IMG/VR virus record: IMGVR_UViG_2617270938_000004
Strand: one strand, 5' to 3'
Length of the DNA stretch: 11,126 nt
DNA from: a virus
Lineage: Duplodnaviria; Heunggongvirae; Uroviricota; Caudoviricetes
A model generated the notes under the pieces. The model worked only from the letters and a program-made list of their open reading frames with translations. It was not told the origin of the DNA and searched no databases. Every line of letters starts with the position of its first letter. Position 1 is the first letter of the stretch. Made by a program: the position numbers and the translations under genes. Of this stretch, positions 1 through 11,126 are shown one piece after another.

Positions 1-1194
1 ATGATCACCGACACAAAGCTCAGGAAGGCGCTCGGCAAGAAAAGAGATGATATCGAGATTATTTCTGATTCGCACGGGCTCAACGCCAGAATCAGCCAGG
101 CCGGAAAAATATCATTTTTCTATCGGTATCGCTGGGCCGGTAAAGCGGTAAAACTCAATGTTGGTGATTATCCTGCAATGAGTATCACCCAGGCAAGAGA
201 GCGTCGCCAACAATTCAGAAACTGGTTAACTGAGGGACTGGATCCGCGAGAGCAGGTGAAGCTGGATAAGCAGACCCGACAGGAAGCGATGTCCGTTGCC
301 GAAGCGTTCAATTACTGGATTGAAAGGCACTGTATCGCTAACGGGCTAGTTAAAGTCGATTACTATCGCCAGGTGTTTGAGAAACATATCGCCGAACCGA
401 TGAAGAATGTCAAAGTCGATAACACAGCGAAAATGCACTGGATCAACGTCTTCGATTCTATAGAAAGCAGGGTGATGGCTCATTACATGCTTTCGCTGTG
501 CAAACGGGCGTTTAGGTTCTGCGTTAACAGAAGTGTGATCGCCTCAAACCCACTCGAGGGATTACTGCCATCTGATGTCGGGCAAAAGCCTAAAAAGAGA
601 ACTCGCAGGATGGACGATGACGATCTGCGCAAAATCTATCAGTGGTTGAAAAGCCATATGTCGATAGAGTCCGTTTTCCTGGTGAAATTTATTATGCTTA
701 CCGGATGCCGTACGGCTGAGATTCGACTTAGTGAGAGATCATGGTTTCGATTGGATGATAATGAGTGGGTCGTGCCTGCGGGCAGTTATAAAACTCGGGT
801 ACATATTAGAAGGGGACTCTCAGACGCCGCCGTTAACCTGGTCAGAAATCACCTCAAGAAAATAAACACCAATCACCTGGTGACTTCACAACGTAAAATT
901 GATGGCGGGATCAAAGATTCGCCCGTTCATTCACCTGTGGCATCCAATTACGCCCGTTCTATTTGGAATGGAACAGGTATGGCAGAGTGGTCGCTTCATG
1001 ATATGAGGCGGACGATAGCCACAAATCTCTCTGAGTTAGGTTGCCCGCCGCACGTAATTGAAAAGCTGCTCGGGCATCAGATGGTGGGGGTTATGGCGCA
1101 TTACAACCTTCATGACTATATCGATGATCAGAAACACTGGCTCCGCGTTTGGCAGAGCCATCTTGAAGAGATCATCGGAGAGCCCTTCAGTTAA
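1..1194 (+). CDS. int: Tyrosine recombinase / phage integrase, P4-type
   Basis: 397-aa ORF. N-terminus '[33 protein letters not shown]' resembles the arm-binding domain of P4-family integrases. Catalytic-domain signatures are present: 'TGCRTAEI' (Arg), 'HDMRRT' (His-x-x-Arg), 'LLGHQ...MAHYNLHDY' (His/Tyr). Stop TAA at 1192-1194. Upstream RBS and att site are outside the window. Confidence 0.9.
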
Positions 1195-1388
1195 TTTATC
1201 TTCTTTTTATCCTCCCACTCTTTGATTGACTCAGAGCGCCAGCGGTTAGGGTTGCCGGGCCAGTCAGGGGGTGGGAACGGGCATACGAAGCCCCGAGGCA
1301 TTGTGTCTGCACTTTGCCATGACCAAAGGGTTTTGCGTGAAATTTTGTAGCGACTGGTCAGGTCTGACGTTACCAAAATATCATCCAT
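1191..1388 (-). CDS. alpA: AlpA-family prophage regulator / excisionase-like HTH protein
   Basis: The ATG at 1388-1386 gives a 65-aa protein '[59 protein letters not shown]', which fits the AlpA pattern (HTH, then FP-P, then W-x-x-E-x-x-W). The ORF-track start at 1433 is a TTG with no RBS; the ATG at 1388 is preceded by a purine-rich 'AGAGAGAG'. The stop overlaps the int stop. Confidence 0.7.
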
Positions 1389-1429
1389 AGCTCTCTCTAG
1401 TTGCCCGTTCGGGCCATTCAAAATCTTTT

Positions 1430-1672
1430 TCAACCAACCTGCCCGGGCAGGGAGCGGAGACGGCGCATGCCGGTCATCGCTGTGGCCACGTAGCTCGCCT
1501 TTCGGTTCACCACCTCCACCCAGACTTTCACGCCTTCAACCTTCACCGTATAAGTCTCTTTCATCTTGCTTCGCCCATAGTCGCCATATGTTTGCAAGTG
1601 AGCTGCCAGCGCGATGTCGCATGCTTGGCGAGCTAAAGGTGATTGCTTACTTCCTCGATTGATCAGTCGCAT
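1430..1672 (-). CDS. Hypothetical small protein (80 aa) in the recombination operon
   Basis: ATG at 1672-1670 preceded by a strong Shine-Dalgarno 'AAGGAG' with a roughly 6-nt spacer (reverse complement of 1673-1684). It sits between the RecT-like and AlpA-like genes on the same strand. No family recognised by eye. Confidence 0.55.
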   Translation of the reverse strand: MRLINRGSKQSPLARQACDIALAAHLQTYGDYGRSKMKETYTVKVEGVKVWVEVVNRKASYVATAMTGMRRLRSLPGQVG

Positions 1673-1710
1673 ATAATCTCCTTGAGGGAGGGTTACCCCT
1701 CCCGGTCTCG

Positions 1711-2829
1711 TCAGGCCACGTATTCCGGTTTCATATCCGCCAGGGTGATGCTGAATTGATCGTGCAGTTCATCGCCTAAGTGACGCTTTGAAGATGCAAG
1801 CATGCGCTCGGCTTCAGCGAACCGTTCGGCTGCATGCGGCTCGTCGGGCTGGGGCAGGGATTTAATAGCCTCCTCAACCTTGTTGCGTGCATCCACTAGG
1901 TAATAACGCTTTACGGCTTTGTTTTTCAGCTCGGTGAATAGTGCGGATCCCAGCGTAGCTTTCGCCGTTTCAATGTCGGCACGCAGCGATTTGGCGCTAT
2001 CCACGTCCTGAGCAGATTCGATGCGTTCGCGGAAATCATCGGCAAGAGAGTCGACATTTACCGACGATTCCTGTGCGCTTTGCGTGGTTGTGACGGTGTC
2101 ACCTGAGATATCAGCCAGGCTAACGCGTTGCGGCGTTGGGTTGATCTCTTTTTCTGTGCGCTGTTCAATCTCATCAGGGGTGTACACACCAAGAACAACT
2201 GCAGGGCAATACAGGCGCGCCCAGTATTTGAGTGCCAGATAAGCGATCTGCTGTTTCGGGTTTGATACCCAAAGTGGAGAATTACGTGTGATTACGCTGG
2301 AGAGGAAAACAGGCTCTCCCCAGGTGATATCACTTTCACCGCGAATAACGGCACCTACCCGTACCGACAGTCCTTGTTCATCAGCACTTTCCCAACCGCG
2401 TACCATTTCTTTCTTGTCGTACGTCCCGCCACCTTTCGCAGGCTTTTTAACGGTTATCTCGCGGCTGCTGGCACATTTCGACCAGTCGCCCTCGTACTCA
2501 TAGTGAAAGCGGCCAACGATGGCGTTTGAGCTGGAGATCACCGCATTAACCAGTTGCGCTTCGTATCCCAGGACACCGTTAACCAGGTGCGTCTTTTGCG
2601 CCACGGCGTAAGGGTTCATACCCCACTGCATCGCCTGCATGATGATGGCCATGCAGTCTGCCGGATTGCCGCGGAGGTGCTCAGGCACCGTTACGGCTGC
2701 CTGTGCCATCAACCCGGCGACAGACTGAAGCTGGGTTAAAGCCTGCACGTTGAAAATGGCATTGCTGGCTGAGATCGTGTTTGGAGTCTGCTGTTCAGCG
2801 GTTACGATATTCGTGTTTTCCATCATCAT
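1711..2829 (-). CDS. RecT/Bet-family single-strand annealing protein
   Basis: 372 aa. Segments 'GNPADCMAIIMQAMQWGMNPYAVAQKTHLV' and 'LWVSNPKQQIAYLALKYWARLYCPAVVLGVYTPDEIE' parallel lambda Bet as I remember it ('...FIALLIVANQYGLNPWTKEIYAF...', '...PWQSHPKRMLRHKAMIQCARLAFGFAGIYDKDEAE'). RBS 'AAGGGGA' lies directly upstream of the ATG triplet at 2829-2821, and the upstream gene's stop is only 5 nt away. Confidence 0.8.
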   Translation of the reverse strand: MMMENTNIVTAEQQTPNTISASNAIFNVQALTQLQSVAGLMAQAAVTVPEHLRGNPADCMAIIMQAMQWGMNPYAVAQKTHLVNGVLGYEAQLVNAVISSSNAIVGRFHYEYEGDWSKCASSREITVKKPAKGGGTYDKKEMVRGWESADEQGLSVRVGAVIRGESDITWGEPVFLSSVITRNSPLWVSNPKQQIAYLALKYWARLYCPAVVLGVYTPDEIEQRTEKEINPTPQRVSLADISGDTVTTTQSAQESSVNVDSLADDFRERIESAQDVDSAKSLRADIETAKATLGSALFTELKNKAVKRYYLVDARNKVEEAIKSLPQPDEPHAAERFAEAERMLASSKRHLGDELHDQFSITLADMKPEYVA

Positions 2830-2834
2830 TCCCC

Positions 2835-3704
2835 TTATGCCTGAGTACGCAGCGCTTCAAGGCGGCGCAGGTCGAAGTCGTTCAGTTCGTCGGTGTAGTC
2901 AGCAGTGATTGGCGCTGGCCATTCACCTGTGTCGAATCCGGTTGCGATATTGCGCATCGCTTTGCGGTACTCGAGCATACCCAGCTCCAGTAGTTCAGCG
3001 GATGCCTCGATGATGGCGATCCAGTGGTAGTTCTCGTCTTTGTTGACGAAAATCCAGAAGAACTGATCCAGCGCTGCGGTTTCGCAGTACATAGCCGCGC
3101 TCAGGTGATAATCACGTTCAATAATTTCCCGGTGTAGCCTGGCGCGCAGGCTTTCCTGCTTAACATTCCACATGCTGATGGTTTTCAGGTCAGCACCGAT
3201 ACGCACGCCGTCTAGGTCGATCTCAAGGTCAGGGCGCACACGAACTTCCAGTCCCGTCTCCTCGTCAAAGCCAAAGTAGCTCACCTCAACGGCGCGGCTC
3301 GGGTGGGTTAGCAGCATGCCTGCGGTCGGGTGCGAGAGCAGTGCTGACTGAATTGCCTGCGCGGTGGCAAGTTGCTGGTGGGTAACCAGCACTTTCCCTT
3401 CCGGGTTGTTGCGCCACGCATCGAGCAGCTCGTCGGCGAACACTGCATCTGGTTTGACTGCCTTCACGGCCTGAATCAGATCGGCCTTCGTGCCAGAGAC
3501 TTTCAGCGGTTGCAGCTTCTGAGCTTCCTGCGCGACCAGGTCAGGATTGATAATCGCAAGTTGTTCGAGTAGTGCGTCGCGGCTGCCGCTGGTTTTAATC
3601 TGCGCTGGCAGGGTGGCGTTGTACTCTTTGATGCACGCCTTCATTGCTGTTGCTGTCTTCTTCTGATCTGCATCGATACGTTGGAATTCAGCTGGCAGCG
3701 CCAT
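2835..3704 (-). CDS. PD-(D/E)XK-superfamily exonuclease (RecE/YqaJ-like partner of the annealing protein)
   Basis: Motif 'VEVSYFGFDEETGLEVRVRPDLEIDLDGVRIGADLKTIS' fits the E...PD...(D/E)xK nuclease core. The gene is immediately upstream of, and co-oriented with, the RecT-like gene. Start placed at the ATG at 3704-3702 ('MALPAEFQ...'); the ORF track extends to a GTG at 3764, which would overlap the divergent GP46-like gene. Confidence 0.7.
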   Translation of the reverse strand: MALPAEFQRIDADQKKTATAMKACIKEYNATLPAQIKTSGSRDALLEQLAIINPDLVAQEAQKLQPLKVSGTKADLIQAVKAVKPDAVFADELLDAWRNNPEGKVLVTHQQLATAQAIQSALLSHPTAGMLLTHPSRAVEVSYFGFDEETGLEVRVRPDLEIDLDGVRIGADLKTISMWNVKQESLRARLHREIIERDYHLSAAMYCETAALDQFFWIFVNKDENYHWIAIIEASAELLELGMLEYRKAMRNIATGFDTGEWPAPITADYTDELNDFDLRRLEALRTQA

Positions 3705-3709
3705 ATAGT
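3681..3709 (+). promoter_or_regulatory. Candidate sigma70-like promoter (TTGGAA-N17-TATAGT) reading toward the baseplate genes
   Basis: 'ttggaa' at 3681-3686 and 'tatagt' at 3704-3709, separated by 17 nt, about 50 nt upstream of the ATG at 3759. Pattern match only. Confidence 0.2.
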
Positions 3710-3758
3710 TCTGCGCCGTTTCATCCAGGCTAACGGCGTACTGACATCTGAGAATGAT

Positions 3759-4121
3759 ATGCACACGGCCATAATTATCAGTTTGTTTACTGACGGACTG
3801 GCGCGCGCTGATGATGATTATGAAGGAACTGACCGCCGCGGCTGGTGGGGGGATCTGGACAACGACCGGAATATTGGCTCAAGGCTGTGGCTACTGCGGC
3901 GTGAAAAACTGACGCGCGAAGTGGCGATGAGAGCTGAAGATTATGCCGAAGAGGCTCTGGCCTGGATGAAGTCGGATGGTATTGCAGCAGCGATAGAGGC
4001 TCAGTCAGAGATTGTTTTCCCGAATAGGCTGAACCTCATCATCCGGTATTTGCCGCCGGCGGGGGACTGGCAGGAGTTCAAATTCTTCTGGCTATGGGAG
4101 CAACTGAATAATGCCATTTAA
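3759..4121 (+). CDS. Phage GP46-family baseplate protein (Mu gp46-like)
   Basis: 'AIIISLFTDGLARADDDYEGTDRRGWWGDLDNDRNIGSRLWLLRREKLT' matches the GP46 family signature (SLFTD...RRGWWGD...GSRLWLL). First ATG in frame is at 3759; the ORF-track start at 3681 is a TTG. The N-terminus may be shortened relative to family members. Confidence 0.7.
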   Translation: MHTAIIISLFTDGLARADDDYEGTDRRGWWGDLDNDRNIGSRLWLLRREKLTREVAMRAEDYAEEALAWMKSDGIAAAIEAQSEIVFPNRLNLIIRYLPPAGDWQEFKFFWLWEQLNNAI

Positions 4122-5259
4122 GCGGAAAACACTGAGCGAGCTCCGGCAGGAGAATCGCCAGTTTATGCAGGCAGAGCTTGAAAGTGTTGGCGCGCTGTTA
4201 CGGTTTGGCAACCTTAAGGTGCTCGCTGATATGGATGCGGGCATGGCCCATCTGCACTACGCCTACCTGGATTATATTGCCCGTCAGAGCACGCCTTTCA
4301 CCTCTACCGATGAGTGGCTTGCCGGATGGATGGCGCTAAAGCAGATTTACCGAAAAGCCGCAACGGCAGCACGCTCTCCGGCGGCGACCGTTACCGGAAC
4401 GCCGGGGAAAACACTGTCAAAAGGGGCGGTGTTAAACCGTGATGATGGTTACCAGTACACAACCGATGATGCCATAACGATAAACACTGCTGGCAGTGCG
4501 TCGGTTGCTGTAACAGCGGTTTTGCCGGATATCACAGACGATGTGACAGGAGGAGGCACTTCCGGAAATGCCGATGCTGGCACCATTCTTACACTGGATG
4601 CTAATGCCCCCGGCATAGACAGCTCGGTTACGCTGATTGAGCCCGCCACCGGCGGCGCCAACATTGAAAGTGAAGAGGATTTCCGATTACGTGGTCTGCT
4701 GGCGTATCAGAATCCCCCGCAGGGCGGGAGTGACACTGATTATAAAAGCTGGGCTTTATCCGTGTCGGGGATCACCAGGGCATGGATACGGCGCCGGGGG
4801 ATGGGGCCGGGTACCGTGGTGATTTACATCATGTGCGACGGCGATGATAAAACCAATCATGGATTCCCTGCAGGAACTGACGGTGTCTCTCAACTGGAAG
4901 AGTGGGGGGCTGTAAAAGCCACCGGGGATCAGGGGAGAGTTGCCGATTATATGTATCCGCTTGCGCCGGTTACCTCCCTTAACTATGTCTGCTCTCCCAT
5001 CGAACGCGTTATCGATTTTGAAATAAGCGGGATATCTGATGCCGACAGCGCAACGACTGCGGCCATTGCTGATGCGATTGACGGGGTATTGTTTGAATCT
5101 GCTAACCCGCTCGGCACAGGGAAAATTTACCTTTCAGATCTCAACCGTGCGATAGGGGATGTTGCCGGTACTTCAGGTTATATCCTTGTGTCGCCTTCTG
5201 CGAATATTGAGCCGGGAGTTGGGGAGCTGGCTGTTCGTGGTGAGGTGAACTACACATGA
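4111..5259 (+). CDS. Baseplate J-like protein (Mu gp47 / e14 JayE-like)
   Basis: 382-aa ORF whose start overlaps the GP46-like gene by 11 nt. Order GP46-J-DUF2313 is as in Mu-like and e14-like tail modules. Judged Baseplate_J-like by overall similarity; HMM confirmation needed. Confidence 0.8.
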   Translation: MPFKRKTLSELRQENRQFMQAELESVGALLRFGNLKVLADMDAGMAHLHYAYLDYIARQSTPFTSTDEWLAGWMALKQIYRKAATAARSPAATVTGTPGKTLSKGAVLNRDDGYQYTTDDAITINTAGSASVAVTAVLPDITDDVTGGGTSGNADAGTILTLDANAPGIDSSVTLIEPATGGANIESEEDFRLRGLLAYQNPPQGGSDTDYKSWALSVSGITRAWIRRRGMGPGTVVIYIMCDGDDKTNHGFPAGTDGVSQLEEWGAVKATGDQGRVADYMYPLAPVTSLNYVCSPIERVIDFEISGISDADSATTAAIADAIDGVLFESANPLGTGKIYLSDLNRAIGDVAGTSGYILVSPSANIEPGVGELAVRGEVNYT

Positions 5260-5930
5260 GCCTTTTCTCAACAGACGATTATCAGAAGGCACTGCAGGCG
5301 CTTATCCCCACCGGCCGAGCGTGGACACGGGATCCAAAAGCTGTTCAGGCCGCTGTACTGCGGGCCATTGCGGCCAGTTTCCAGCGAAGTGATAACGACG
5401 CACTTGCATTGCTGCGCGGTGCCTTTCCAAAAACTGCGACGATTATGCTCACCGAGTGGGAAAAAACACTCGGCTTACCTGATGATTGCTCAATTGGCGA
5501 AGTGGATACGATTGCGAAGCGTCAGTCTGCCATTGTATCGAAACTCATCAGCACCGGCGGGCAGTCAAAGAGCTATTTCATCAGTATTGCCGCAGCAATG
5601 GGTTATACGATTTCGATTAAGGAATACCGGCAGGCGCGTGCTGGCTTATCGGTATGTGGTGACGGGCTAAATGGGGATGACTGGCCATTTGTCTGGCTGG
5701 TAGAGGCAGAAGACACAACGATAACTTATGCCCGTGCAGGTCTGAGTTATTGCGGCGATCCATTACGCTCCTGGGGTAATCGCCAGCTTGAGTGCCGGAT
5801 AAATGCCCTTGCCCCCTCATACACCCTGGTGAAATTTGGCTATATCTATTTCGGTTTTAACGATGAGGGGGTTTACGAAGTCACGCCTGAGTTTGCCAGA
5901 ATATTTGATATCGCTTCCGGTTACGTTTAA
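5256..5930 (+). CDS. Phage tail protein, YmfQ/DUF2313 family (Mu gp48-like)
   Basis: 224 aa with an ATGA start/stop overlap with the upstream J-like gene (ATG 5256-5258, TGA 5257-5259). N-terminus 'MSLFSTDDYQKALQALIPTGRAWTRDP' resembles the YmfQ family. It lies directly upstream of a tail fibre gene. Confidence 0.8.
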   Translation: MSLFSTDDYQKALQALIPTGRAWTRDPKAVQAAVLRAIAASFQRSDNDALALLRGAFPKTATIMLTEWEKTLGLPDDCSIGEVDTIAKRQSAIVSKLISTGGQSKSYFISIAAAMGYTISIKEYRQARAGLSVCGDGLNGDDWPFVWLVEAEDTTITYARAGLSYCGDPLRSWGNRQLECRINALAPSYTLVKFGYIYFGFNDEGVYEVTPEFARIFDIASGYV

Positions 5931-5956
5931 TTCAGACATTTAAAAAGAAGGTTTAT

Positions 5957-6742
5957 ATGAGAAAAGTTGGCAGTACAACTGACACCGCTGATGCTAATGG
6001 TGAATACACTAATGGTAATGTCGCTAATGGTATTTCACCGACAATAATTAATGCTGAGATGATGAATACCTTTCAGCGTGAGCTGGTAAACGTTGTTGAG
6101 GGCGCGGGGCTTGAGCTTGATCCTGATGATGATTCACAGGTTCTTAAAGCGATTGGTGGCGGTCGCCTGCTTAATATTGTCACCTTTACTAAGTCAGGGA
6201 CTTACACTCCAACTAAAGGGACGAAAAGAGTGCGGGTGAAAGTTTGGGGAGCGGGGGGAGGTGGCCAGAATGCTCCAGTTAGTGTGGGCGCATCTGGAGG
6301 TTGTGCTGGTGGATTTTCGGAAGGGTTATTTAATATTTCTGATAACGAAACTATATCTGTGACGATAGGTACTGGTGGCAGTGCTGTTGCTGCTGGTGTC
6401 TCGTCTAAAGGCGGGAATGGTGGTGATACAAGGTTCGGGAGTTTAATCTCAGCTACTGGAGGGAGTGGTGGCGGGGCTACAGTTCCTGCTGGAGGTATCG
6501 GAAGTGGCGGGAACATTTTAAATATTACTGGCGGAATATCTCAAGGTGGTCTGTATTATGGTTCTGATGCTTTTATTGGCGGGGCTGGGGGATCTGCATT
6601 TTCATCAACGGGTGGCAATGGCCACTTCGGTAGTTCTGGCGATGATGGCGGTTTCCCCGGCTCAGGTGGTGCCGGGGGGAATGGTAACTATTCATCAGGA
6701 AAAGGAGCGAATGGTTTAGTTTACCTTGAAGAGTTTTCCTGA
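5957..6742 (+). CDS. Tail fibre protein with conserved N-terminal fibre domain and glycine-rich C-terminal region
   Basis: 261 aa. RBS 'GAAGG' 5 nt before the ATG. N-terminus 'GISPTIINAEMMNTFQRELVNVVEGAGLELDPDDDSQVLKAIGG' matches the conserved tail-fibre N-terminal motif seen in P2/Mu/e14-type fibres. C-terminal 170 aa is Gly-rich ('VKVWGAGGGGQN...GGSGGGATVPAGGIGSGGN...'). Codon usage is AT-rich relative to the upstream baseplate genes. Confidence 0.75.
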   Translation: MRKVGSTTDTADANGEYTNGNVANGISPTIINAEMMNTFQRELVNVVEGAGLELDPDDDSQVLKAIGGGRLLNIVTFTKSGTYTPTKGTKRVRVKVWGAGGGGQNAPVSVGASGGCAGGFSEGLFNISDNETISVTIGTGGSAVAAGVSSKGGNGGDTRFGSLISATGGSGGGATVPAGGIGSGGNILNITGGISQGGLYYGSDAFIGGAGGSAFSSTGGNGHFGSSGDDGGFPGSGGAGGNGNYSSGKGANGLVYLEEFS

Positions 6743-7812
6743 TTATTTTTGCTTTGAGCGTCCGCCCTTATTTTTGCTCTAATTTTAATTAGTGGCTTTT
6801 CTATTAATATTACACAAACGATCCCAAGTGCAATTGATATTGGGTAGCCTAATAAAAAGATGGATAAGCCACGATTTTCACCACCAATAGCAAGCCATGC
6901 TAGAAATCCACCAAAATATTGACAAAGAAAAATTGGATAGGCCAGGTCACCAAACCACTTGAGTATTTTCTCAAGATGTATGTTTGTCTTTATTTTTAAT
7001 AATACCAGGGTTGTAAACAATGCTATTACATTATTGGTGTAGTAAAGTATTATGTTGTACTGACCTAATGCATTAATTGTATATAAATGCCAATTGGTAA
7101 TAAAAATCCCGATGCAAATAAATGTTATTAAAAAAGCTTTGTGTGGAGAAAGATACATAGCTTTGAACTTTCTATGGGCAAAATAACCCAGAGAACCCAT
7201 GCTAAAAGGAAGTGTTGCAGCAAGGAATGGGAAATACGCCATATCAAAAGAATGGTGTACTACATATACGTAAGCATGATAAAGCAGTGAAAGCAGAATC
7301 GACGTAATGGCTGTAAATTTATTTCGGGCTATGAAAAGCCACAATAAAAAATAACATGTTATCTCAACACCCACTGACCATGATGATGTGACTATTCTGA
7401 ATCTATTACCATCAATAGCAAAGTGATAAATGGATGAAAAGGCACCGAATGGATTTGCTACAGCATTATCAGAAAGGAAAGCCCAGGGGAAGATTAAGAG
7501 GTTTCCTAATAAATCTCCAGGTAAGAAATTGCCTGTCCAGTTTGAGTGGAATTCCTTTGCGGATGGAATTAATTTTATAATAAGAAAGCCCATGACGAGA
7601 AAAAATATATATGCCGGGAATAACCTCAGCATTCTATTTTTCCAAAACATAGAGAAGTTGAACTTGTATGTTTCATGCAAAATGTATGTTATTAAAAAAC
7701 CACTAATAACATAGAAGCAATTCACTGCAAAGTTGCCAAGTGCAGGTATGCGAGCCGTTAAGTGAAAAGCAATGACGCACGATGCCAAAAAAAACCTTAT
7801 TAGGCCAAGCAT
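6721..7812 (-). CDS. Acyltransferase family 3 integral membrane protein (O-antigen / polysaccharide O-acetyltransferase-like, Oac/OafA-type)
   Basis: 363 aa and highly hydrophobic. Family hallmarks: 'FHLTARIPALGNFAVNCFYVISGFLITY' and 'FWKNRMLRLFPAYIFF', comparable to the 'G-x-x-GVD-x-FFV-x-SGFLIT' and 'R-x-x-R-I-x-PxY' motifs. The 3' end overlaps the convergent tail fibre gene by 22 bp. Confidence 0.85.
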   Translation of the reverse strand: MLGLIRFFLASCVIAFHLTARIPALGNFAVNCFYVISGFLITYILHETYKFNFSMFWKNRMLRLFPAYIFFLVMGFLIIKLIPSAKEFHSNWTGNFLPGDLLGNLLIFPWAFLSDNAVANPFGAFSSIYHFAIDGNRFRIVTSSWSVGVEITCYFLLWLFIARNKFTAITSILLSLLYHAYVYVVHHSFDMAYFPFLAATLPFSMGSLGYFAHRKFKAMYLSPHKAFLITFICIGIFITNWHLYTINALGQYNIILYYTNNVIALFTTLVLLKIKTNIHLEKILKWFGDLAYPIFLCQYFGGFLAWLAIGGENRGLSIFLLGYPISIALGIVCVILIEKPLIKIRAKIRADAQSKNNQENSSR

Positions 7813-8075
7813 TATTTTATCTCCGCGCCAATATCGCGCATTTTATTTATTACATTGTTAAGTTGCTCATCAGACAGAACAAGCTGAGCTGCAATATAAA
7901 ACAGTATGTGTCTTGACATTACCCTGGGGCTCTCTCCGCCAGTGTATTTCCGCCATTGGCTATCGCTGGCTACACCTGCGAGCCCTGCCATTTGGTTTCC
8001 GGAGTAATTTAGTGCGGATTTCAGTCTGGCTAAATCTTCCTGCGTTGGAGGGGTGTATTTATTTATTAAAATCAT
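7812..8075 (-). CDS. XRE-like helix-turn-helix DNA-binding protein, co-transcribed upstream of the acyltransferase
   Basis: 87 aa from the ATG at 8075-8073. 'TQEDLARLKSALNYSGNQMAGLAGVASDSQWRKYTGGE' fits a Cro/C1-type HTH. Its stop overlaps the acyltransferase start in a TAATG arrangement (7810-7814, minus strand). An 87-codon ORF in AT-rich DNA is unlikely by chance. The ORF-track start at 8099 is a GTG without RBS. Confidence 0.55.
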   Translation of the reverse strand: MILINKYTPPTQEDLARLKSALNYSGNQMAGLAGVASDSQWRKYTGGESPRVMSRHILFYIAAQLVLSDEQLNNVINKMRDIGAEIK

Positions 8076-8107
8076 TCTCTTATTTAACCGTTTAAACACG
8101 TAAGGCG

Positions 8108-8136
8108 ATGTTAGCCCTGAAGGGGCGGGGCGTCAA
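8108..8136 (-). promoter_or_regulatory. Candidate sigma70-like promoter (TTGACG-N17-TAACAT on the minus strand) for the HTH-acyltransferase operon
   Basis: Reverse complement of 8131-8136 is 'TTGACG' and of 8108-8113 is 'TAACAT', with a 17-nt spacer, about 33 nt upstream of the ATG at 8075. Pattern match only. Confidence 0.2.
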
Positions 8137-8176
8137 TCTTAATTGCTTCATTGAAAAGATGAAGACAGGAACAGGT

Positions 8177-10360
8177 ATGGACAAAAGATATAATACCGGC
8201 AATCCAAGACCTTCAAATAGCATGAAGGATCTGAATGATAACGCCCTGGCGTACGATGATTTCCTGAACAGCGAAAGAGATACTTTTATAGATCGTTTTG
8301 GTAACGCCCAGGATACGATAATTGGGGCTACTAAAAAAATGGCAGCTGCTACCGACGCTGTTATTGATGAAGCCCGCCAAAACCTGATCCCTCTGAGCAA
8401 GCAATACATGACGCTTGCTGATGCACAGGCAGATATTGCTAATATCCCCGAGGGGAGCACTACTTATTATCGCAGCCCGGATGACAGCGCCCTCGCGATC
8501 GAGGTCATGAACGTTGGCGGAACGTTGCAGCCAACCGGTCGCAGGATGATTTCTGCTGGATATGTTGACGCGCTGAGAGATTTGGTTGCCACTGAACTGG
8601 CGAAAATTATGGCTTTCGGTGCTGCTCAGACTACCGATGCATACCCAGATATTGCTGAGCTCATTCTTGATAGTGTAGGGCATGCCGTTTATCGCCGTTA
8701 TACCGATGGCACGAGCCAGTTTCCGGCATTGATGATTGGTTCAGGGATTGAGCTTGTGCAAATTGCAGGTGGAGGATTTGTCTGCCAGATGCGCGCCACT
8801 GGTGAAGAAATATTTAACATTTCTGCCCTTGGCAATCTGACACATGGCAGCCTGACCACGTGGTTTGCTGATGATGACAGTGTCAGTGACTATTCTGAAA
8901 TACATATGGACGGACAGGGGAGAATTTTTCGGCGAGTTCGCACAGATGGTACCGTGGAGCAGCTGGGCGATGACACACCTGATGATGACGCCTCTGAATT
9001 CCCAATGGTTGCTTCAGTTGATGGAAATATCATTGCGGTAGATGGCAGCGATGTAACTCAGATCACGAACGACTCCGGAGTTTCAAATATTGCGCCAGTG
9101 GCATATGCGGAATTTTTGCGTTATTTGTCGAATGTCAGCGGCAACTACATCACTTATCGATCCACTTATGACGGGAATTACCGGGCGCGAGAGTCATTGC
9201 GCTTTCTTATTCACCTGATTATAACTGGTCAGTCTCTTGCTGCAGGCGGTTCAACGCAAGCACAAAGCCCTGTAACGACAACAGCGCAGGCAGATTACGG
9301 CATACTCTCGTTTGAGACCGGCCCGAAAGTCGATTTTAAGTATGACACGCTGAATGAATCGCTCCTTGAGGCTGTCATCCCATGCCGGGAGAATGCTGGG
9401 ACGCGGCCTGGACAGGAGTCGCCATCAAGCGGTATGGCGTTTAAAATTCATGATCTCACCGGGCATACGGTTCTGGTTTCCGATGCGTGCTCATCCGGTA
9501 CTGCAATCGCAGACATTTCATCCGGTTCAGCGACTTTTACTGGTGCAACGAAAATGATTCAGTCAGCTGTAGCCATGGCTGAAAAGTTGGGTATGCAGTA
9601 TGTTCCCGTAATGGTGCTTATCCACGGCAACCAGAATGCAGCAGCAGGCACATCTATATCCAGTTATCGCGCCGCAATGGAGACTCTCCGTGCTCAGTAT
9701 GAGTCTGTCATTAACGCGGCAACAGGAAAAAGCCAGTCGCTTCACATGTTTGTAGGCCAGTTATCTAATACCATTCCATACGGCGGAACTGCCGGTTCGA
9801 CCAAAACTAATAACATCGGTATCGCACAATATCAGGAAGCCCGTGATAACGCATTAATCCATCTTGCCAGCGCACAGTATGCCCGCCCGTATTCAGACGG
9901 TGAGCATCTGACCAGCGCAGGGTATCGGACAGAAGGCGAAGTTATTGGCGCGGTGGTTGGTGGGTGGCTGAATGACAATACAAAATCCGCGCTTGTGCCG
10001 ATAGAGTCTGGTGTTGTGCAGTCAGGAACCACAATCACTATACCAGTGGCGGGTTGTGTTGGTGATCTCGTGATTGACACCTCGAGGGTTACCGATCCAG
10101 GCAACTACGGCTTTGTCCTGACCGGGGCCACAATTGCTTCGGTAGCCGTTAGCGGCAGCGGATCAGCAGCAAAAATAGTTATCACCAAGACCGATTCTAC
10201 CACTGCGACGGCGATATCTTATGCAAGCCAGGGGATTGCCGGACAAAACCCCGGCCCTGTAACCGGTTCGCGCGGGTGTATCAGAGATTCCCAAACAGGG
10301 ACGTCACTATCCGGCCTGCCTCTCTATAACGACCTTTGCGTTTTCTCCATCCAGCTTTAA
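8177..10360 (+). CDS. Putative tail fibre / tailspike-like protein with SGNH-hydrolase (sialate-O-acetylesterase-like) domain
   Basis: Start placed at the ATG at 8177 (AGGA 6 nt upstream); the ORF track begins at 8108. Catalytic-type motifs: 'LIITGQSLAAGGS' (GQS at 9227-9235, the SGNH block I serine), 'VLIHGNQNAAAG' (block III-like), 'DGEHLTSAGYRTEGE' (DxxH block V; Asp 9896-9898, His 9905-9907). No N-terminal signal peptide. C-terminal 130 aa is Thr/Ser/Gly-rich and looks beta-rich. It sits in a tail-fibre locus. Confidence 0.7.
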   Translation: MDKRYNTGNPRPSNSMKDLNDNALAYDDFLNSERDTFIDRFGNAQDTIIGATKKMAAATDAVIDEARQNLIPLSKQYMTLADAQADIANIPEGSTTYYRSPDDSALAIEVMNVGGTLQPTGRRMISAGYVDALRDLVATELAKIMAFGAAQTTDAYPDIAELILDSVGHAVYRRYTDGTSQFPALMIGSGIELVQIAGGGFVCQMRATGEEIFNISALGNLTHGSLTTWFADDDSVSDYSEIHMDGQGRIFRRVRTDGTVEQLGDDTPDDDASEFPMVASVDGNIIAVDGSDVTQITNDSGVSNIAPVAYAEFLRYLSNVSGNYITYRSTYDGNYRARESLRFLIHLIITGQSLAAGGSTQAQSPVTTTAQADYGILSFETGPKVDFKYDTLNESLLEAVIPCRENAGTRPGQESPSSGMAFKIHDLTGHTVLVSDACSSGTAIADISSGSATFTGATKMIQSAVAMAEKLGMQYVPVMVLIHGNQNAAAGTSISSYRAAMETLRAQYESVINAATGKSQSLHMFVGQLSNTIPYGGTAGSTKTNNIGIAQYQEARDNALIHLASAQYARPYSDGEHLTSAGYRTEGEVIGAVVGGWLNDNTKSALVPIESGVVQSGTTITIPVAGCVGDLVIDTSRVTDPGNYGFVLTGATIASVAVSGSGSAAKIVITKTDSTTATAISYASQGIAGQNPGPVTGSRGCIRDSQTGTSLSGLPLYNDLCVFSIQL

Positions 10361-10373
10361 AGGACTGTAAATC

Positions 10374-11126
10374 ATGACTACCCGCTTTTATATTGATAAC
10401 GGTGTGACAGCCACGCGTTACCTTGACACTTACCCTTATCCAAACGACATCACCCAACTTCCGGCTTTAATACCGGGGATTATCCTGCAGGCTGATTTTG
10501 ACGTAAAAGACACTGCATCATTAACCAGAAACCGGGTTGGAGCTGCTATGTCCGTTGTTGGCTCTCCTGTTCTTGGTGATTACGGCGTCAGCCTCACTGA
10601 GGCTAACCACCTGGATACAAACATCGACATAGCAGCATATAACGGCAGCGATCTGACAATGGTGACAATAGCTGTCCATCCAGGGGTAATTGGTGCTGTT
10701 GTGGGCCGGGTGCAGATGAACGCGCCACAGCGTACTCGTGGTACACAAACTACGGCTACAGCGTGGAGAGCTAAATGGTTGACTGCAGCAGGTGCAGCAC
10801 AACAGGCCGACCTTATCCCGTCTACTGCCGCAATTGATGGCGAAATGGCAGTCAGTCGGTTTGTGCGAGACAACGGTAGCGGATCAATGCTGACTAAGCT
10901 TGATCTGCCACGCACATCACAGTCAGCAACCCGCACCGCAGCGACGACTCCTTATGCTGTACCTTCGTCAAAAATTCTGCTGGGCGGTTCTGTCGAGGGA
11001 GCCACGACTGCCACTATCTTCATGCGGGCATGCCTGATTGTATCTAGGGCAATAACGGATGTTGAAATGGCAACTATTTACACCTATTACAAAAATTATT
11101 ATCAGCTGAAAGGCAAAAACATTTAA
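10374..11126 (+). CDS. LamG-like (concanavalin A-like lectin fold) domain protein, putative carbohydrate-binding tail accessory protein
   Basis: 250 aa. RBS 'AGGA' 9 nt upstream, immediately after the esterase stop. C-terminal 'ILLGGSVEGATTATIFMRACLIVSRAITDVEMATIYTYYKNY' resembles the LamG/Laminin_G_3 terminal motif (iG....F.G.IDEvRiYnRALs..Ei..lY). Assignment by motif only. Confidence 0.5.
   Translation: MTTRFYIDNGVTATRYLDTYPYPNDITQLPALIPGIILQADFDVKDTASLTRNRVGAAMSVVGSPVLGDYGVSLTEANHLDTNIDIAAYNGSDLTMVTIAVHPGVIGAVVGRVQMNAPQRTRGTQTTATAWRAKWLTAAGAAQQADLIPSTAAIDGEMAVSRFVRDNGSGSMLTKLDLPRTSQSATRTAATTPYAVPSSKILLGGSVEGATTATIFMRACLIVSRAITDVEMATIYTYYKNYYQLKGKNI

Follow-up and report, generated by a model that had tools for sequence, protein, structure and literature searches.

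A 31.5-kb Deletion Scar Joining recE to gp46 in an Escherichia coli Prophage, and a TA-Centred Pattern at Related Deletion Ends

Introduction

The cryptic prophages Rac, e14, DLP12 and Qin of Escherichia coli retain int/xis and scattered early and tail genes, their replication, lysis and morphogenesis functions having been lost. In e14, for example, a J-like gene, ymfQ and fibre genes are left while the remaining tail genes are gone. The element considered here is likewise such a remnant. It is contained in an 11,126-bp stretch of DNA (IMG/VR record IMGVR_UViG_2617270938_000004, Caudoviricetes; the whole stretch is called the window in the following), in which a truncated recE gene of the RecET recombination operon stands head-to-head with a truncated gp46 gene for a baseplate protein. 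Unlike the four prophages mentioned above, it has an intact parent that is known at 99.9-100% identity, and its scar could be mapped to the base. It also sits at the phi80 attachment site in yciI and not at the Rac or e14 sites. When K-12 Rac was compared with Rac-SA53, the homologous segments were found to end at mosaic boundaries, and no junction could be mapped.

Truncation of recE has a precedent in the sbcA-type deletions of Rac, in which the 5′ part of the gene is lost and the C-terminal nuclease domain and recT are joined to foreign upstream DNA. The window resembles them in having a truncated recE, followed by recT, under foreign upstream DNA. The sbcA mutants were selected for RecE expression, whereas the DNA upstream of recE in the window is antisense gp46, in which only a putative promoter, a 9/12 match to consensus, is predicted. 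In the phages phi80, HK225 and mEp237, which are lambdoid, recE is of full length and no Mu-type baseplate genes lie beside it; their matches to the window end at the breakpoint. HK225 shares recT and the 3′ end of recE with the window at 99.9% identity, and the att core and chromosomal site of the phi80 module match those of the window's prophage.

Short-homology illegitimate recombination in E. coli, as in lambda Spi- assays and in RecET- or gyrase-linked pathways, appears RecA-independent, has overlaps of 1-6 bp and gives deletions only, as is the case here. We know of no study of this kind of recombination that describes a fixed TA-centred palindromic motif, and a literature search for such a motif in this context found none.

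Here, we compare the window with its intact parent and with other members of the same prophage family. The junction between recE and gp46 almost certainly marks a single non-homologous deletion, which took 31,519 bp out of the interior of a mosaic temperate prophage of 44.2 kb, and no evidence against a deletion scar was found. We also describe a sequence pattern at the deletion ends of this family, and we discuss which processes could have produced it.

Results and Discussion

The prophage of E. coli 20KM2222, located between kch and yciI, was used as the intact reference; its two loci were stitched together and the window was aligned to the result by BLAST. Window positions 1-3732 correspond to 13565-17296 of the stitched sequence with 100% identity, and positions 3731-11126 to 48814-56209 with 99.88% identity over 7396 bp. 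The parental interval that is missing from the window comprises 31,519 bp. The two alignment blocks share only the dinucleotide TA at positions 3731-3732, and there is no inserted DNA at all. By this alignment and by three-way alignments, the TA common to both parents (3731..3732) is the deletion junction. The parental flanks agree there at 6 of 9 positions at best, and the hybrid hexamer GCTAAC at 3729-3734 is made up from GCTAGC in recE and GGTAAC in gp46. In a first-pass annotation of the window, made from its sequence, a large internal deletion had been proposed by which early recombination genes and late tail genes became fused, and the alignment to the intact prophage bears this out.

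The intact 20KM2222 prophage is 44,203 bp long and is bounded by a 17-bp direct repeat, AGAACACTTTCTTAAAT, at 13362 and 57548. On the source contig (L014 among the loci that were fetched), the same core lies just upstream of int, in the stretch that separates it from kch; the window begins at the ATG of int, with attL just outside it. The attL and attR cores bound the intact prophage as well as the remnants in L004 and L077. The attachment site is that of phi80, at the 3′ end of yciI and next to kch. In strain VE-F5 the order is kch, int, DUF4060, recT, a recE of 3324 bp, and then the early and replication genes. In the intact relatives, recE and gp46 are 31.5 kb apart, and immunity, replication, lysis, head and tail genes lie between them.

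What was lost can be read from the RefSeq annotation of the intact copy. On the early side it is the 5′ 2.3 kb of recE, ydaE, a kilR-like gene and a moron of 467 amino acids (aa), followed by a repressor/cro-like pair, ydaT, the replication genes, dinI, rusA, Q, and the genes for a holin, a lysozyme and a lysis protein. The packaging and head genes that are gone encode the small and large terminase subunits, gpW, the portal, an S49 protease, the scaffold, the decoration protein, the major capsid protein and connectors, and the tail genes encode the sheath, the tube, a chaperone, a 617-aa protein of tape-measure size, a DNA circularization protein and two baseplate proteins, together with the 5′ end of gp46. 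A comparison of the window's open reading frames (ORFs) and their Pfam matches with the genes annotated in the intact prophage shows that the modules for immunity, replication, lysis, packaging, head and tail are absent. The ORF list, Pfam and PHROGs gave no head, tube, sheath or spike gene anywhere in the window, in agreement with the earlier remark that no such genes precede the GP46-J-YmfQ trio.

The left module, with int, xis and DUF4060, is 99.1-99.9% identical to phages phi80, HK225 and mEp237, which points to a mosaic prophage at the phi80 attachment site. This parent combines a phi80-type int/xis/att region and an early-left RecET operon with a head of the lambda type and a contractile tail of the Mu type. 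In it, the deletion joined the TA within GCTAGC of recE to the TA within GGTAAC of gp46, and the product is int-xis-DUF4060-recT-recE′ placed head-to-head with ′gp46-J-gp48-fibre-acyltransferase. The remnant would be incapable of replication, cell lysis or particle formation. The native early and late promoters lie within the deleted interval. With the early (PL-side) and the late (Q-dependent) promoters gone, expression of recE′-recT and of the baseplate genes would therefore need fortuitous or internal promoters.

Several familiar routes to a deletion were considered and discarded. Homologous recombination between repeats does not apply, the parental sites having only TA in common and no repeat of tens of base pairs. 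An adjacent deletion mediated by an insertion sequence (IS) was rejected on the 2-bp overlap of the blocks and the absence of an IS at the junction. As for end protection directed by Chi, the Chi sequences at 3374, 3841 and 6305 are neither placed nor oriented in a way that would account for the junction.

Both genes at the junction are truncated, to very different extents. The recE remnant, on the minus strand at 2835..3732, consists of the last 298 codons of a gene of 1076 codons, with a product of 289 aa from the first ATG at 3704. The first 778 of the 1076 codons are gone and the C-terminal nuclease part alone survives. Profiles from Pfam, NCBIfam and PHROG are the basis for its assignment as a RecE-type nuclease of the PD-(D/E)XK kind: of the 883 positions in phrog_607, the 289-aa exonuclease covers 667-883, and of the 877 in PRK09709 (NCBIfam), the remnant covers 680-874. 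A search of PDB sequences with the remnant gave no match at E <= 1e-3. In intact prophages, the full-length recE measures 3231-3324 bp.

The gp46 remnant, for a baseplate wedge protein, occupies 3733..4121 on the plus strand (phrog_180). Here the first 19 codons and part of codon 20 of a gene for 149 aa are missing. Translation from the ATG at 3759 gives 120 of the 149 aa, which align to positions 30-147 of the 148 in phrog_180, while translation from the in-frame TTG at 3681 gives a chimera of 146 aa; both products are on record (WP_248841896.1 and KDU15811.1, respectively). The suggestion in the first-pass annotation that GP46 may have lost N-terminal residues is thus correct, with 29 residues gone if M30 serves as the start, and recE was cut far more.

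The geometry is also as had been described, namely 5′ ends about 55 bp apart that overlap if a GTG at 3764 is used. The minus-strand exonuclease ORF has its ATG at 3704 and an in-frame GTG upstream at 3764, the first ATG of the plus-strand GP46 ORF is at 3759-3761, and the two first ATGs (3704 and 3759) are 54 bp apart. The ORFs overlap if either the GTG at 3764 or the TTG at 3681 is used. The GP46 start had been placed correctly apart from an imprecision of about 2 nt, since the earlier text implied about 3757-3760 and the actual ATG is at 3759.

It can be mentioned that recE is itself variable in this family. It contains internal repeats that code for ...EYNA(T/S)LPA... (window 3590-3735, and the intact copies in L002 and L003), its product length differs between strains (969, 1076, 1107, 1125 and 1129 aa), and some strains have frameshifted copies. 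The N-terminal two thirds of the protein look dispensable and unstable.

The junction was next to never encountered elsewhere. A megablast search with window 2800-4700 against 5,426 complete E. coli genomes gave 118 that match one half and none that matches both, the left-half matches stopping at query position 936 and the right-half matches beginning at 932. None of the 22 matching records among 50,697 phage records spans the junction, and a 29-mer across it is absent from 185,579 species-representative genomes (GTDB). The gp46 site is intact in all 11 IMG/VR copies and all 13 metagenome copies, and the recE site in all 13 IMG/VR copies, 37 copies of both sites in total. The window is identical over all its 11,126 bp to contig JNMO01000012.1 of E. 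coli 3-105-05_S3_C3, the strain from which the 146-aa chimera (KDU15811.1) and the 289-aa nuclease (KDU15795.1) were deposited. The same junction is present in a second isolate, in the Logan assembly of SRR1186721, with 2 single-nucleotide polymorphisms (SNPs) over 8.4 kb. It was found only in 3-105-05_S3_C3 and this one near-identical isolate. The scar is real, lineage-specific and rare.

These data also bear on two readings in which there is no deletion. One is that the order is native, i.e. that a short RecE-type nuclease naturally abuts baseplate genes and that the 31.5 kb found elsewhere is an insertion. Apart from the general mosaicism of phage genomes, nothing points in this direction, and its probability is practically negligible. 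Both ORFs are truncated with respect to family-wide profiles, the interval in the intact copies contains essential phage modules in canonical order, and neither site is disrupted in any of its copies from viral and metagenome collections (37 in all). The first-pass annotation had pointed to complete relatives with the recombination operon directly beside GP46 as what would reveal a native arrangement, and none of the phage records and complete genomes searched has that order. The other reading is a misassembly, in which two pieces of an intact prophage were wrongly fused into one contig. The sequence comes from a short-read assembly of draft quality, and other contigs of this prophage break near the junction. 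However, such an artefact is unlikely because of the 2-bp overlap, far below any assembler k-mer, and because the junction recurs in a second assembly, that of SRR1186721 (whether a further run or a further isolate), 2 SNPs away over 8.4 kb. Similar junctions are moreover present in the finished genomes 22F46, KFu022 and 38I23CPO002, and taken together we find a misassembly hardly credible.

The deletion in the window is one of many in this prophage family. By means of an exact look-up of the 120-aa GP46 product, of complete genomes and of an all-against-all screen of the fetched loci, 14 deletion junction types were mapped (that of the window and 13 others), which fall into nine independent clusters. 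Among complete genomes, recT is joined to gp45 in 22F46, recE to Q in KFu022 and ydaS to J in 38I23CPO002. Two more junctions were found in L004, and others in L021, L061 and L059. L062 and L017 have a deletion of 7.8 kb with a TA junction mapped to the base, the size of which matches a gap in the alignment of E. coli HS. A candidate that was dismissed is P0018 (a RecE fragment of 214 aa), which is a pseudogene with its upstream DNA retained. The commensal reference strain E. coli HS (NC_009800.1 2067345-2079248) and a number of isolates from pigs seem to harbour a further defective version of this prophage, in which the 7.8-kb deletion lies between head and baseplate genes.

Twelve of the 14 junction types cross at TA. 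Counted by independent clusters, TA is in the overlap of 6 of 8 (P = 7e-6, given the overlap lengths and the k-mer content of the prophage), and a ninth cluster, found later, has TA too. The 18 parental sites were aligned on the TA and read outward on both strands, which gives 36 half-sites. C is present at +2 in 29 of them, compared to a background of 31% (P = 1.7e-9), and G or C at +3 in 30. The full motif GNTANC occurs at 10 of the 18 sites, compared to 9.9% of all TA sites (P = 1.9e-6). The motif is seen in 14 of 18 discarded halves and in 15 of 18 retained ones. Partners of one event have G/C at the fixed positions in common, and the N positions often differ between them. In L077, the crossover is at TA despite a perfect 7-bp match only 1 nt away. 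The GNTANC pattern is statistically strong, and the motif on discarded halves, the differing N positions and the case of L077 make it look like symmetric recognition of a site and not like base pairing between partners. Beside the window (3729-3734), the loci that show the motif are L004, L006, L009, L013, L017, L021, L061, L062, L073, L074 and L077.

A motif of this form has been described in another context. The mariner transposase Himar1 does not insert at the TA motif (GC)GNTANC(GC), which was termed 'non-permissive' (DeJesus et al. 2017, PMC5241402). It is the same as the deletion-end motif, with G at -2 and C at +2 around the TA and G/C at +/-3. For Himar1 the motif marks sites without insertion, whereas here it marks deletion joins in which no mariner element is involved. 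The identity may reflect a physical property that such TA steps share.

Certain sites have been used more than once. The retained gp46 sequence, TAACGGCG..., follows four left partners (recE, the gene after dinI, the head scaffold gene and a DNA-methylase-like gene), all joined at the same gp46 base. A special hot spot in gp46 was considered and rejected: the 87-bp interval that can yield the 120-aa ORF holds a single GNTANC. The recurrence is explained by the motif and by the way in which the variants were ascertained, i.e. the look-up of the 120-aa ORF. In another isolate (L013 9973-9977), the TA in recE that forms the window's junction has a site near a DUF2513 gene as its partner. The recT site GATACC was likewise reused, its partner being gp45 in 22F46 and another tail gene in L061; reused sites are located at L013 9973-9977, L061 666-670 and L073 6001-6005.

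A separate observation concerns the ends of contigs. In four unrelated assemblies, contigs start close to the junction, L008, L011 and L012 at window position 3757 and L016 at 3706. These starts lie exactly 2 nt before the ATG of gp46 or recE, and each reads ATATG. Look-up bias together with contig breaks induced by repeats is probably the reason.

How, then, were the ends of these deletions chosen? One answer is that the join is made at TA sites of the form (G/C)GNTANC(G/C), by a sequence-biased cut-and-join process or by template switching. The deletions that inactivate this widespread family would in this case be non-random, with a dimeric enzyme or a structure-specific process joining such sites with an overlap of 0-2 bp, and the window's scar, GCTAGC with GGTAAC giving GCTAAC, would be one product of it. 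The enzyme could be a nuclease of the restriction kind, its ends being religated afterwards, or else a relaxed recombinase or an activity of the topoisomerase type. We put this forward tentatively, as a reading that may well apply but that stops short of being probable. Several points weigh against it. Two junctions, AATCC and TTGC, have no TA, and one parental site is GATGAC and does not conform to GNTANC. Paired sites share bases, by which the counts over the 36 half-sites are not fully independent, and all of the mapped events come from one prophage family. Finally, no enzyme with GNTANC specificity was found among the invertase, the integrase and gyrase, which were the ones considered. Rpn nucleases were discarded as candidates, the paper on them giving no sequence specificity.

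Plain illegitimate recombination at microhomologies, through replication slippage or the joining of ends at a double-strand break and possibly assisted by RecET, would do without any such specificity, the TA/GNTANC pattern then being a sampling effect. This we regard as a serious possibility, though less likely than not. Overlaps of 1-6 bp are typical of such events, the two junctions without TA speak for it, and so does the fact that deletions but no inversions were seen among the 77 loci, which fits slippage or end joining; RecET-dependent short-homology recombination in E. coli has also reportedly been studied by the Ikeda laboratory. On the other hand, TA is the rarest microhomology to be expected (3-15%, depending on length), yet it is found in the six of eight clusters mentioned above. 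Fixed, spaced G/C positions that are common to the partners while the bases between them differ look like recognition by a protein, and neither the near-equal occurrence of the motif on discarded and retained halves nor the choice of TA over the 7-bp match in L077 fits plain microhomology. The prophage's own recombinases, that is its phi80-type integrase or the Gin-type invertase at its right end (55% identical to PDB 3UJ3), acting at secondary sites, are quite improbable agents. Both genes are kept in cis in every variant examined, and a 2-bp crossover is the expected outcome for a serine recombinase. However, the att core bears no resemblance to the junction sites, and secondary sites of the integrase were rejected on this ground. 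Gin sites are of the form ...AAACC-NN-GGTTT.... The 18 sites are not conserved beyond about 4 bp from the centre, where the helix-turn-helix domain of an invertase would bind: no half-site conservation was seen at positions 5-8 in the 18-site count, nor out to position 20 in an earlier count of 11 sites. One parental site has TG instead of TA, which counts against either recombinase, and pseudo-sites of the invertase were rejected in the absence of gix-like half-sites and of inversions among the 77 loci.

Illegitimate recombination by topoisomerase II (gyrase), for instance after exposure to a quinolone that would also select for loss of an SOS-inducible prophage, is improbable as well. The E. 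coli gyrase consensus as given in the supplement of PMC6379681 is CGGCGGTAT-NNNN-ATACCGCCG, in which GGTAT and ATACC flank a 4-bp stagger, and several of the junction sites read GATACC, TATACC or GGTA. By that consensus, however, 6 bp separate the two halves of a gyrase site, whereas the halves of the present sites adjoin each other at a single TA. When the 18 sites were scanned with the core of the consensus alone, no consistent register emerged (best z ~3 among 31 offsets). Very improbable, lastly, is a transposable element, in the sense that two copies of a TA-duplicating IS630-type element recombined, or were excised as a composite, and left a clean TA behind. There is a TA at the junction, and the recE site GCTAGC contains CTAG, the preferred target of IS630. 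Against this, no junction has an extra base or an IS, the intact prophage copies examined have no IS at these sites, and most of the 18 sites are not CTAG.

The first-pass annotation had also suggested that a TTGGAA-N17-TATAGT element could still drive the baseplate genes. This element is present on the plus strand at 3681..3709 (TTGGAA at 3681-3686, a spacer of 17 nt and TATAGT at 3704-3709), within antisense recE sequence, and the consensus scan gives 9/12 matches for it. Between 3300 and 4200 the scan found three promoter-like sites where 0.4 are expected. The other two, also with 9/12 matches, are at 3748..3775 on the plus strand and at 3754..3781 on the minus strand, the latter (CTGATA-N16-TATCAT) in antisense gp46 and pointing into the recE remnant. 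All three lie in recE or gp46 coding DNA that is unchanged in intact prophages, and the join created none of them. The TTGGAA-N17-TATAGT element, being identical in intact prophages, was therefore not created by the deletion and did not evolve as a promoter. The minus-strand site, if active, would point into recE′-recT, a resemblance to the situation of sbcA in Rac.

The remaining genes of the window lie in two arms. The left arm starts with a phi80-type tyrosine integrase of 397 aa at 1..1194 on the plus strand (Pfam Arm-DNA-bind_3 and Phage_integrase). On the minus strand it continues with an 80-aa ORF for an excisionase at 1191..1433 (phrog_1553, E = 1.4e-33; named xis in phi80), a DUF4060 protein at 1430..1672 (Pfam PF13269) and the intact single-strand annealing protein RecT at 1711..2829 (Pfam RecT, E = 2.5e-36), whose gene is 100% identical to that of the intact prophage. 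To the right of gp46, on the plus strand, follow an intact baseplate J protein, similar to Mu gp47, at 4111..5259 (Pfam Baseplate_J, E = 4.9e-53), an intact baseplate protein similar to Mu gp48/YmfQ at 5256..5930 (Pfam Phage_Mu_Gp48) and a glycine-rich tail-fibre-like protein at 5957..6742 (Pfam Gly_rich_2 and PHROG tail-fibre families). An Acyltransferase_3 family membrane protein is encoded on the minus strand at 6721..7812 (Pfam PF01757), and this gene is likely lysogenic-conversion cargo. Finally, a tail-fibre-like ORF of 750 aa is found on the plus strand at 8108..10360 (phrog_4201 tail fiber protein, E = 1e-88).

The part of the window that lies to the right of the gene for the glycine-rich fibre (6721-11126; L001 17991-22396; also L004, L006 and L073) is a zone of variable cargo. 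The opposite-strand acyltransferase gene overlaps the 3′ end of the fibre gene by 22 bp and is followed by the fibre-like protein of 727/750 aa; in other strains TolB-like or SGNH/GDSL hydrolase proteins are encoded there. The window has three plus-strand Chi sequences (GCTGGTGG), at 3374-3381, 3841-3848 and 6305-6312. The one at 3374 lies inside an inverted repeat, TGCTGGTGGGTAACCAGCA, that the scan marks as terminator-like. Outside the window, L009 encodes at 459-1836, between Q and the methylase gene, a caspase-like Peptidase_C14 protein together with a TIR protein of the ThsB type, a pair that is likely a defence-system moron. In L001, a 20-nt inverted repeat with 90% complementarity (22160-22179 and 22699-22718) flanks 519 bp upstream of the Gin-type invertase gene, and these could form a small invertible segment.

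Conclusions

The scar between recE and gp46 is a case of ordinary prophage decay and, as such, a known kind of feature. It documents well the passage from a temperate phage to a cryptic remnant, with a mapping at the level of single bases that is owed to the intact parent. For annotation, it means that the 'GP46 family protein' of 120 or 146 aa and the 289-aa 'exodeoxyribonuclease VIII' of strain 3-105-05_S3_C3 are truncation products. The remnant keeps recT and the nuclease domain of RecE, the pair used in recombineering, and could affect recombination in the host if these are expressed. If the ends of prophage deletions follow a sequence rule, domestication would be partly predictable, and a direct test for a new activity that cuts or joins DNA in E. 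coli would come within reach.

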